This document shows, in pieces, positions 19,647-20,044 of a stretch of DNA of 33,103 nucleotides. Position 1 is the first letter of the stretch, and each line of letters starts with the position of its first letter. The notes below the pieces were generated by a model that was given only the letters and a program-made list of their open reading frames with translations, searched no databases and was not told the DNA's origin. This DNA is from Simkaniaceae bacterium (GTDB lineage: Bacteria > Chlamydiota > Chlamydiia > Chlamydiales > JAJFMI01). The stretch is taken from contig JBBDIZ010000014.1 of assembly GCA_040880145.1 (NCBI GenBank), positions 1 to 33,103 of the forward strand. Reading direction: 5' to 3'. The position numbers and the translations under genes are program-made.

Positions 19647-19797
19647 TTGACATCCTCCCAACTGCTAAAGCAAGTGGGATTCCCTATTCTTACGTTTAGG
19701 GTTCCTAATTCTCAGACCGTAGCTTTCGGTTCCATTAGGAACGGGAAGTCTTACACAGTCTCCAAAGGCTTAACATCCCACGAGCCCCGTGGTAGAC
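19647..19797 (-). ncRNA. TnpB omegaRNA (reRNA)-like scaffold
   Basis: CTACCACGGGGCTCGTGGGATGTTAAGCCTTTGGAGACTGTGTAAGAC...GGTCTGAGAATTAGGAACC...GAATCCC...GGGAGGATGTCAA resembles the sequence typical of tnpB 3' ends and IS605 right ends. Confidence 0.7.
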
Positions 19798-19813
19798 CTA
19801 AAAAGGTGAGTGT

Positions 19814-19822
19814 AGTTTAACA
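19814..19822 (-). promoter_or_regulatory. Putative extended -10 promoter inside the element, upstream of the omegaRNA-like scaffold
   Basis: TGTTAAACT (TGn-TAAACT) on the minus strand, about 15 nt before the scaffold. Confidence 0.4.
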
Positions 19823-20044
19823 GATTATGGAAAAAAACAAAAATACGAAACAAAAATTTAATACGCTCTCATCCCACCCCTAAAGAGGTGGATTTTCCCG
19901 CGGGCAATCATAACAACAAAACTTTTCGAGACCCCTCCAGGAAAAAGATTTTTTTGTGGAAAACTTGTTGAAAAGATTAGACAAAAAAAAGCCCCCTTCG
20001 TTACAAAGAATATTTGATACAAGAAATTATTTTAAACAAGCCTT

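Follow-up and report, generated by a model that had tools for sequence, protein, structure and literature searches.

The 457-bp spacer between ssb and a divergently oriented gene for a 548-residue protein in a Simkaniaceae genome is the site of a short, gene-less piece of DNA that raises a two-part question: is it a transposon derivative, and does the guide RNA scaffold that it seems to carry still serve any purpose? By the window we mean the whole analysed stretch, the 33,103 nucleotides of contig JBBDIZ010000014.1 (assembly GCA_040880145.1). A preliminary description of it placed a protein-free IS200/IS605 mini-element with its own promoter at 19647..19909, and read this as a mobile guide cassette whose dispersed copies would amount to a distributed guide array. 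Our analysis upholds the identity and anatomy in that interpretation, namely the ends, the copies and the match to a structure model (R1, below), and sets the array aside. That the mini-element is a PATE with an omegaRNA-type scaffold we hold with high confidence. The fuller account, in which window positions 19647-19909 are a non-autonomous, internal-deletion PATE of an ISDra2/IS608-type IS200/IS605 element that acts by the mechanism proposed below, we consider probable. The features are collected in Table 1, and motifs are read on the minus strand unless stated otherwise.

Table 1. Position, strand and distinguishing marks of the features at the ssb locus of the window.
Feature	Position	Strand	Remarks
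Protein-free IS200/IS605 derivative (PATE), 263 bp	19647..19909	minus (= top strand)	five copies; metagenome contig breaks
ssb	19081..19587	minus, co-oriented with element	NF004948, 157.6 bits; ATG 59 nt past the element's right end
Gene for 548 aa, no assigned family	20045-21691	plus	divergent from ssb
TTAT target/cleavage tetranucleotide (would be TAM), flank outside element	19910..19913	minus	adjoins 5/5 copies
Left-end DNA guide AAAA, directly 5' of hairpin foot	19893..19896	minus	covaries with flank
Left subterminal hairpin, 7-bp stem, TTTA loop	19874..19891	minus	17 nt from TTAT to foot in copies reading CCCACC
TGTTAAACT, extended -10-like box	19814..19822	minus	18 nt upstream of first scaffold stem
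OmegaRNA-type scaffold	19676..19805	minus	model R1: 43.6 bits, E 1.3e-7, model positions 1-132 of 132
tnpB 3'-end remnant, last 16 codons and TAA stop	19751..19801	minus	LGLPRGSWDVKPLETV-stop vs LGVPRGSRDFKPVELV-stop
Scaffold stem 1, 5 bp	19778..19792	minus	pairing kept, sequence unlike tnpB-linked relatives
Scaffold hairpin, 5 bp, TAAT loop	19729..19742	minus	fully compensatory; helix 4: 9/9 pairs changed on both sides
Extra hairpin before right-end hairpin	19682..19701	minus	also in tnpB-linked right ends of G089, G399
Right-end DNA guide GAAT, 5' of hairpin foot	19679..19682	minus	
Right subterminal imperfect hairpin, TTTA loop, one stem mismatch	19656..19679	minus	
TCAA right cleavage site, element's last bases	19647..19650	minus	ends 10 nt 3' of CCCA...TGGG foot
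Flank, would-be 20-nt guide of read-out RNA	19627..19646	minus	only 20-nt genomic match is its own flank

The copies define the element. The genome assembly to which the window belongs (G000, with the window as contig C14) comprises 1,263,912 bases in 40 contigs and is 90% complete. A DNA search of it with the mini-element returned 16 matches, five of them full-length copies; the genome thus holds at least five full copies at 97-100% identity (C14:19647-19913, C6:991-1257, C21:7377-7642, C29:43633-43898 and C13:3018-3283). When the five are aligned with 60 nt of flank, identity begins exactly at 19647 and ends at 19913, a span made up of the element (19647-19909) and a common ATAA that reads TTAT on the minus strand. 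TTAT stands before the element and TCAA at its end in all five copies. The right flanks begin TTTC, TGAG, ATAA, CCGA and CGCA; as they resemble neither one another nor TTAT, the target is not duplicated. The public runs listed for this DNA are two sediment-metagenome DNA runs of one study, with no RNA run among them. Contigs from both break at the same places, 19646/19647 and 19913, and then run into several different flanks. Their depths add up to about 30 in the flanks, to 164-215 over the element core and to more at both ends; depth is not copy number, and the profile agrees with a repeat that has ends in common with further elements. All motif coordinates given in the preliminary description proved correct, and its statement that neither tnpA nor tnpB lies inside also stands: only two mechanically called open reading frames, of 60 and 54 aa, overlap the mini-element, and no transposase or accessory gene is contained in it.

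Both ends of the mini-element carry subterminal imperfect palindromes on the same (minus) strand, and terminal inverted repeats are absent. At the left end, guide and flank vary together within this one genome. AAAA goes with TTAT in nine left ends (the five copies, the C11 start, the C2 start, the C6 end and the C11 end) and AAAG with TTAC in two (the tnpA-adjacent left end of C23, and C18:8899); these are the eleven ends counted in the alignment, from which a twelfth sequence, the C12 end, was left out as a member of another element family. Such covariation is what the left-guide rule of IS608 predicts, and it bears out the earlier proposal that AAAA specifies TTAT. The pairing proposed for the right end, GAAT with TCAA, is correctly placed and has an IS608-like distance between hairpin foot and cleavage site; GAAT is reportedly the right-end guide of IS608 too. 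IS608 is cut 3' of TTAC, at a point 19 nt ahead of the left hairpin foot, with AAAG as its left guide; the other cut is made at TCAA, 10 nt beyond the right foot, and each foot has a 4-nt guide on its 5' side (PMC3201880). Set against that account, the mini-element has the same top-strand hairpins at both ends, the same placement of 4-nt guides and a TCAA at about 10 nt past the right foot; it differs in having 17 rather than 19 nt between target and left foot, TTAT in place of TTAC, and no genes.

More than half of the mini-element had been called omegaRNA-like, and about 60% of it is indeed homologous to the 3' end of tnpB together with the adjoining right end. The scaffold aligns to this region in genomes G159, G070, G050 and G093 and next to a tnpB fragment on contig C13 of the same assembly; the last ~130 nt of the relatives' tnpB and their right ends correspond to minus-strand positions ~107-267 of the mini-element. 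Six of the 400 genomes of the order that were scored with its scaffold half gave a match. The closest scaffold relative, G089:C9, is 70% identical over 156 nt, with the extra hairpin and the tnpB stop included, and the tnpB frame upstream of it has one in-frame stop. It is with the end of this frame that the translation of the mini-element's tnpB remnant aligns (Table 1). Since the last 16 codons and the stop of tnpB are kept, the mini-element is best described as an internal-deletion derivative that preserves the left end and everything from those codons onward; what it retains is the left end, a spacer rich in A and T that holds the -10-like box, the 16 codons and the whole right end with its structured region, the counterpart of the omegaRNA scaffold in tnpB-bearing relatives. 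As in ISDra2, the scaffold overlaps the 3' end of tnpB and runs to the right end; unlike ISDra2, the mini-element encodes no TnpB.

The mini-element and the tnpB-linked right ends have blocks of conserved sequence in common, and in the stems pairing survives although the sequence differs. Covariance model R1 was built from eight tnpB-linked right ends only, with no mini-element among them. Run on the assembly at E<=1, R1 gave eight matches, including all five copies over the whole length of the model (43.6-45.6 bits, E 4e-8 to 1.3e-7), the others being a training sequence, a relic at C29:34517-34651 and a partial right end at the start of C26. Over 39 sources it gave 21 matches, from which an alignment of 20 distinct rows was made. 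Pairing cells amount to 91.6% in these rows and to 36-53% when partners are slid by 1-3 columns, and 32 of 43 pairs are changed on both sides against 6-15 when slid, in an alignment that was fitted to the model and so favours structure. None of 500 shuffles of the 20-row alignment reached the observed pairing and covariation values. The single-sequence fold of the element is not unusually stable (z = -1.1). The mini-element is nonetheless no chance resemblance, because it exists in five near-identical copies and is matched by a structure model made from other sequences.

In the proposed covariance-model comparison, R1 recovers 5/5 copies, and no Rfam family reaches its threshold in 19500-20100, either at gathering cut-offs or at E<=10 (Rfam 15 may lack a TnpB omegaRNA model). 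The best Rfam match is to HPnc0580, a Helicobacter pylori small RNA, full-length over 19718-19807 on the minus strand, at 16.9 bits against a gathering threshold of 37 (E 2.6). The failure of every family to pass, with this weak match as the only lead, could be taken to favour an origin outside transposons, as a REP/BIME-type repeat, an independent small-RNA gene or a riboswitch. We regard such an origin as extremely improbable: it is opposed by the sharp TTAT and TCAA ends in 5/5 copies, by the IS608-like geometry, by the tnpB stop region and by the homology to tnpB-linked right ends.

If the scaffold is the end of a lost tnpB gene, how would it be transcribed? The preliminary description saw an extended -10 ahead of the scaffold. 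With the sequences set flush at the first scaffold stem, all 12 protein-free elements compared, which come from eight assemblies, show a -10-like hexamer whose end lies 17-19 nt upstream of that stem, and a TG lies one base upstream of the hexamer in 7/12. The tnpB-linked locus L082 has coding sequence in place of the box. The conserved position speaks for the box; a sigma-70 scan that requires a -35 box reported no minus-strand promoter within the element. As the motif was defined after sight and in an AT-rich region, its conservation is support and not proof. The sigma-70 pattern scan also called a terminator-like stem at 19659-19641, formed by the right end and the flank, which we take to be a chance occurrence.

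A box that points out of the right end could act on whatever lies beyond. One may suppose that the main present effect of the mini-element is to read into the neighbouring gene, here ssb, so that it serves as a mobile promoter or 5' leader. A co-oriented frame begins within 33-59 nt of the right end in three of the five full copies (C14, C6 and C21), and such frames also follow both relics checked: on C7, and at C29:34651, where a tRNA-like sequence comes first and then a 931-aa frame. Conservation of the box fits this reading as well. At the remaining two full copies (C29 and C13), however, the gene beyond the right end is convergent, with its 3' end towards the element, and co-orientation is expected anyway from insertion strand bias. 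IS200/IS605 insertion shows a strand bias tied to replication. Nor does ssb need the element, because two genomes of the same family, G001 and G002, keep ssb beside the same divergent gene with the element absent. The ssb spacer is about 207 bp in G001 and 194 bp here once the element is subtracted, and the two sequences are too diverged to align. We therefore consider an exapted outward promoter improbable as the main role.

Movement and guidance would both depend on proteins supplied by other elements, and the search for these genes gave a divided answer. The preliminary description supposed that TnpA and TnpB would act in trans. A single tnpA is assembled (C23:9894-10289, 131 aa; PF01797, 135 bits; NF033573, 143 bits), and it adjoins a left end of the AAAG/TTAC type, not of the AAAA/TTAT type. 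No intact tnpB is present in the assembled contigs, where the sole piece is a 107-aa C-terminal fragment at C13:3819-4139. A search of the assembly with PF07282 found only this fragment and a sub-threshold scrap, PF01385 gave no match in the 90% complete assembly, NF040570 gave none over its cut-off, and tblastn with the TnpB of G159 returned only the C13 fragment and a 27-aa scrap. A 189-aa frame divergent from tnpA on C23 was considered as a TnpB N-terminus and rejected, since neither Pfam nor NCBIfam gave a match for it and BLAST against the TnpB of G159 gave nothing significant. Separately, a stretch that encodes the peptide VVQHCFCK is common to the C13 tnpB fragment (~4110-4139) and this 189-aa frame (~9460-9490), and its DNA also forms the end of C8 and the start of C24. 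It appears to be the terminus of a further repeat that disrupted the genes on C13 and C23.

The lack of an intact tnpB favours the most serious rival, that the copies here are a relic: a selfish mini-transposon mobilised by TnpA, its scaffold mere baggage with no working guide RNA, in a genome that has lost functional tnpB. The five copies, at 97-100% identity, are uninformative on selection for the scaffold in this genome. Degraded pieces add to the case. One is a solo right end of 68 nt (C7:14675-14742), 100% identical to the last 68 nt of the mini-element and placed 46 nt before a co-oriented 390-aa frame. The other, C29:34517-34651 on the plus strand, keeps scaffold and right end (R1, 92.6 bits) with a -10-like box upstream and no recognisable left hairpin, and ends 13 nt before the tRNA-like sequence. 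In its 5' half this relic is like the mini-element, in its 3' half like the tnpB-linked subtype.

Two lines of evidence stand against the relic reading. The first comes from the edges of the assembly. The starts of C7, C23 and C26 lie inside a tnpB-type right end, identical (C7 and C23) or near-identical (C26) to the one downstream of the C13 fragment. The start of C2 and the ends of C6 and C11 fall within left ends of the TTAT type, ~80% identical to that of the mini-element, and the start of C11 likewise breaks off in an IS605-type end. Contigs that end in right and left ends in this way indicate that at least one longer, multi-copy element was left out of the assembly, and this element could carry tnpB. 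The tnpB-type right ends at the three contig starts are of a different subtype from that of the mini-element, so that use of the mini-element by this type of tnpB is only putative. The second line is comparative: protein-free elements across genomes keep their pairing by compensatory changes and keep the -10-like box in position, which suggests that the RNA has been under selection within the lineage. Weighing both sides, we see the relic reading as a substantial possibility that falls short of the favoured one. The element family as a whole probably does express and use the scaffold RNA; that TnpB uses it in this genome today is a good deal more doubtful.

What a compatible TnpB might look like can be judged from relatives. 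A search of 301 genomes of the order with the C13 fragment gave matches in 75, at 86-89% identity in G159, G070 and G050. The TnpB of G159, the closest full-length relative and 89% identical to the local fragment, aligns to ISDra2 TnpB at E 2.4e-67 over residues 3-338. In comparison with ISDra2 TnpB structures (PDB 8bf8, 8exa and 8h1j), it keeps GIDVG, VESL and DRDIN, which we take to be the catalytic positions, and the local fragment keeps DRDIN. No TldR-type gene, that is, a TnpB homologue with a disrupted RuvC site, was found beside or paired with a guide. The suggestion that a nuclease-dead TnpB might serve these scaffolds thus finds no support, either in the local fragment or in the G159 relative.

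Other repeats were noticed in this assembly, many of them at contig ends. A second IS200/IS605-like hairpin-end family, with different left- and right-end sequence and a right end that finishes in TTGACA, is represented by an apparently gene-less copy of ~330 bp (C1:15200-15533) and by ends at C7:46520-46501, C8:82-63, C9:10674-10655, C12:34998-35017, C18:90-71, C23:18137-18118, C25:32-13, C26:15366-15347 and C30:27-46, many of which fall at contig ends. A left-end-like hairpin at C29:49777-49796 has flanks that form a longer palindrome (TTATGACTGCCC and its reverse complement). Microsatellite-like G3/C3 hexamer repeats occupy positions 1-75 and 33030-33103 of the window and recur at the ends of C12, C15, C16, C19, C22, C26, C28, C34, C38 and C39. 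Elsewhere in the window lie genes for a 1868-aa double UvrA (5414-11020, plus strand; NF001885 match) and a 1062-aa RHS/YD-repeat protein (27464-30652, minus strand). The double UvrA, a form linked to chlamydiae, agrees with the assignment of the genome to the Simkaniaceae.

If the scaffold RNA is made, what would it guide to? The 20 nt 3' of TCAA are TTTCCCCAATTTTAGTTAAC, just as the preliminary description gave them. For this copy, the other four and three relic ends, the 20-nt guide has a 20-nt match in the genome only at its own flank. No second-site target of at least 15 nt was found in the genome for any of these guides, save matches of 17 and 18 nt with two mismatches each. A guide that matches only its own flank is what the published homing and retention model expects. 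A distributed guide array was therefore an over-reading: all eight guides match their own flanks only.

An empty site would be the most direct trace of movement, and neither the metagenome nor related genomes supplied one. In the contigs of the two sediment-metagenome runs the two flanks were nowhere joined directly, nothing came from a third run of that study, and a 27-mer of the flank had no match in the metagenome contig collection. A search of 61 genomes with the whole element matched five, the present genome included, with no full-length match in a relative. Protein-free elements of like architecture do occur at G020:C15, G070:C21 and G080:C12, and the C29 relic of the present genome belongs with them. 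Apart from that relic, these elements and the seven protein-free loci described next resemble the mini-element in a flank of TTAT or similar, a left hairpin, a -10-like box within an AT-rich spacer, the scaffold core and a GTCAA end; they differ in being 65-85% identical where alignable, and some have a longer central insertion or another left hairpin.

Eight loci in species-representative genomes contain an exact 21-mer of the scaffold; seven are protein-free, and the eighth, L082, follows a tnpB homologue. The scaffold core also appears in MAGs labelled outside the Chlamydiae, the labels being as recorded: L081, L083 and L085 (uncultured proteobacterium/Methylococcaceae) and L082 (Thermotogaceae). 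Two of them, L081 and L083, carry no gene and have another left hairpin; none can be clearly made out in L085, and L082 is the locus linked to tnpB. The distribution points either to spread across phyla or to mis-binning.

We can now state how the mini-element would most likely work. TnpA acting in trans would excise the top (minus) strand directly after TTAT and directly after TCAA and reinsert it 3' of another TTAT, as the ends and the pattern of copies suggest. The promoter-like box would start a minus-strand RNA of ~180 nt that continues past the right end and so copies the local flank in its 3'-terminal 16-20 nt. By analogy with known systems, a compatible TnpB, if present, would be guided to the empty donor joint (TTAT plus flank), and the cut joint might then be repaired from a sister copy, so that the element is retained.

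Elements of this general kind are already on record. In one study, gene-less PATE-like elements with IS605 ends are described in Geobacillus stearothermophilus, PATEs are stated often to encode omegaRNAs that require TnpB in trans, and both TAM/guide covariation and cutting of donor joints by TnpB are reported (PMC10055086). A preprint adds a PATE with IStron ends, a relative of a C. difficile IStron (bioRxiv 10.1101/2023.11.20.567912). As far as these sources show, the mini-element resembles such PATEs in being short and gene-less, in having both IS200/IS605 ends and an omegaRNA region that would need TnpB, and in its presumed reliance on TnpA in trans. It differs in its hosts, which are environmental Chlamydiae-like MAGs, in its TTAT target, in a -10-like box at a fixed position before the scaffold, and in a short 5' palindrome that tnpB-linked relatives lack; neither of the latter two was met in the available parts of the paper or the preprint. 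A literature listing on IS605 in chlamydiae gave nothing specific in the entries at hand. Because PATEs with omegaRNAs have been published (PMC10055086), the mini-element is a further example and the idea behind it is not new; its hosts, its TTAT class of target and its fixed box are details not met in the PATE literature as available to us.

A broader reading is that the protein-free elements are long-lived, guide-only parasites of TnpB and no accidents of deletion. On this view they are equipped with their own conserved promoter and a 5' hairpin that replace processing of a tnpB mRNA, borrow TnpA to move and TnpB to be retained, span Chlamydiae-like and other MAGs, and may persist as outward promoters before genes such as ssb in a reduced genome that is losing tnpB. 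This is speculative, and we think it rather unlikely in its full form.

The mini-element leaves the current understanding of TnpB biology unchanged. It is of value as a clean natural case of the modularity of IS200/IS605 elements, in which the ends, the DNA guides and the RNA scaffold persist without either protein. The genome provides an internal control in that TTAT/AAAA and TTAC/AAAG classes stand side by side in it. The conserved -10-like box suggests a route to guide RNA that does without processing of a tnpB mRNA. For genome annotation, the mini-element explains part of the repeat load, and of the contig breaks, in a small chlamydia-like genome.
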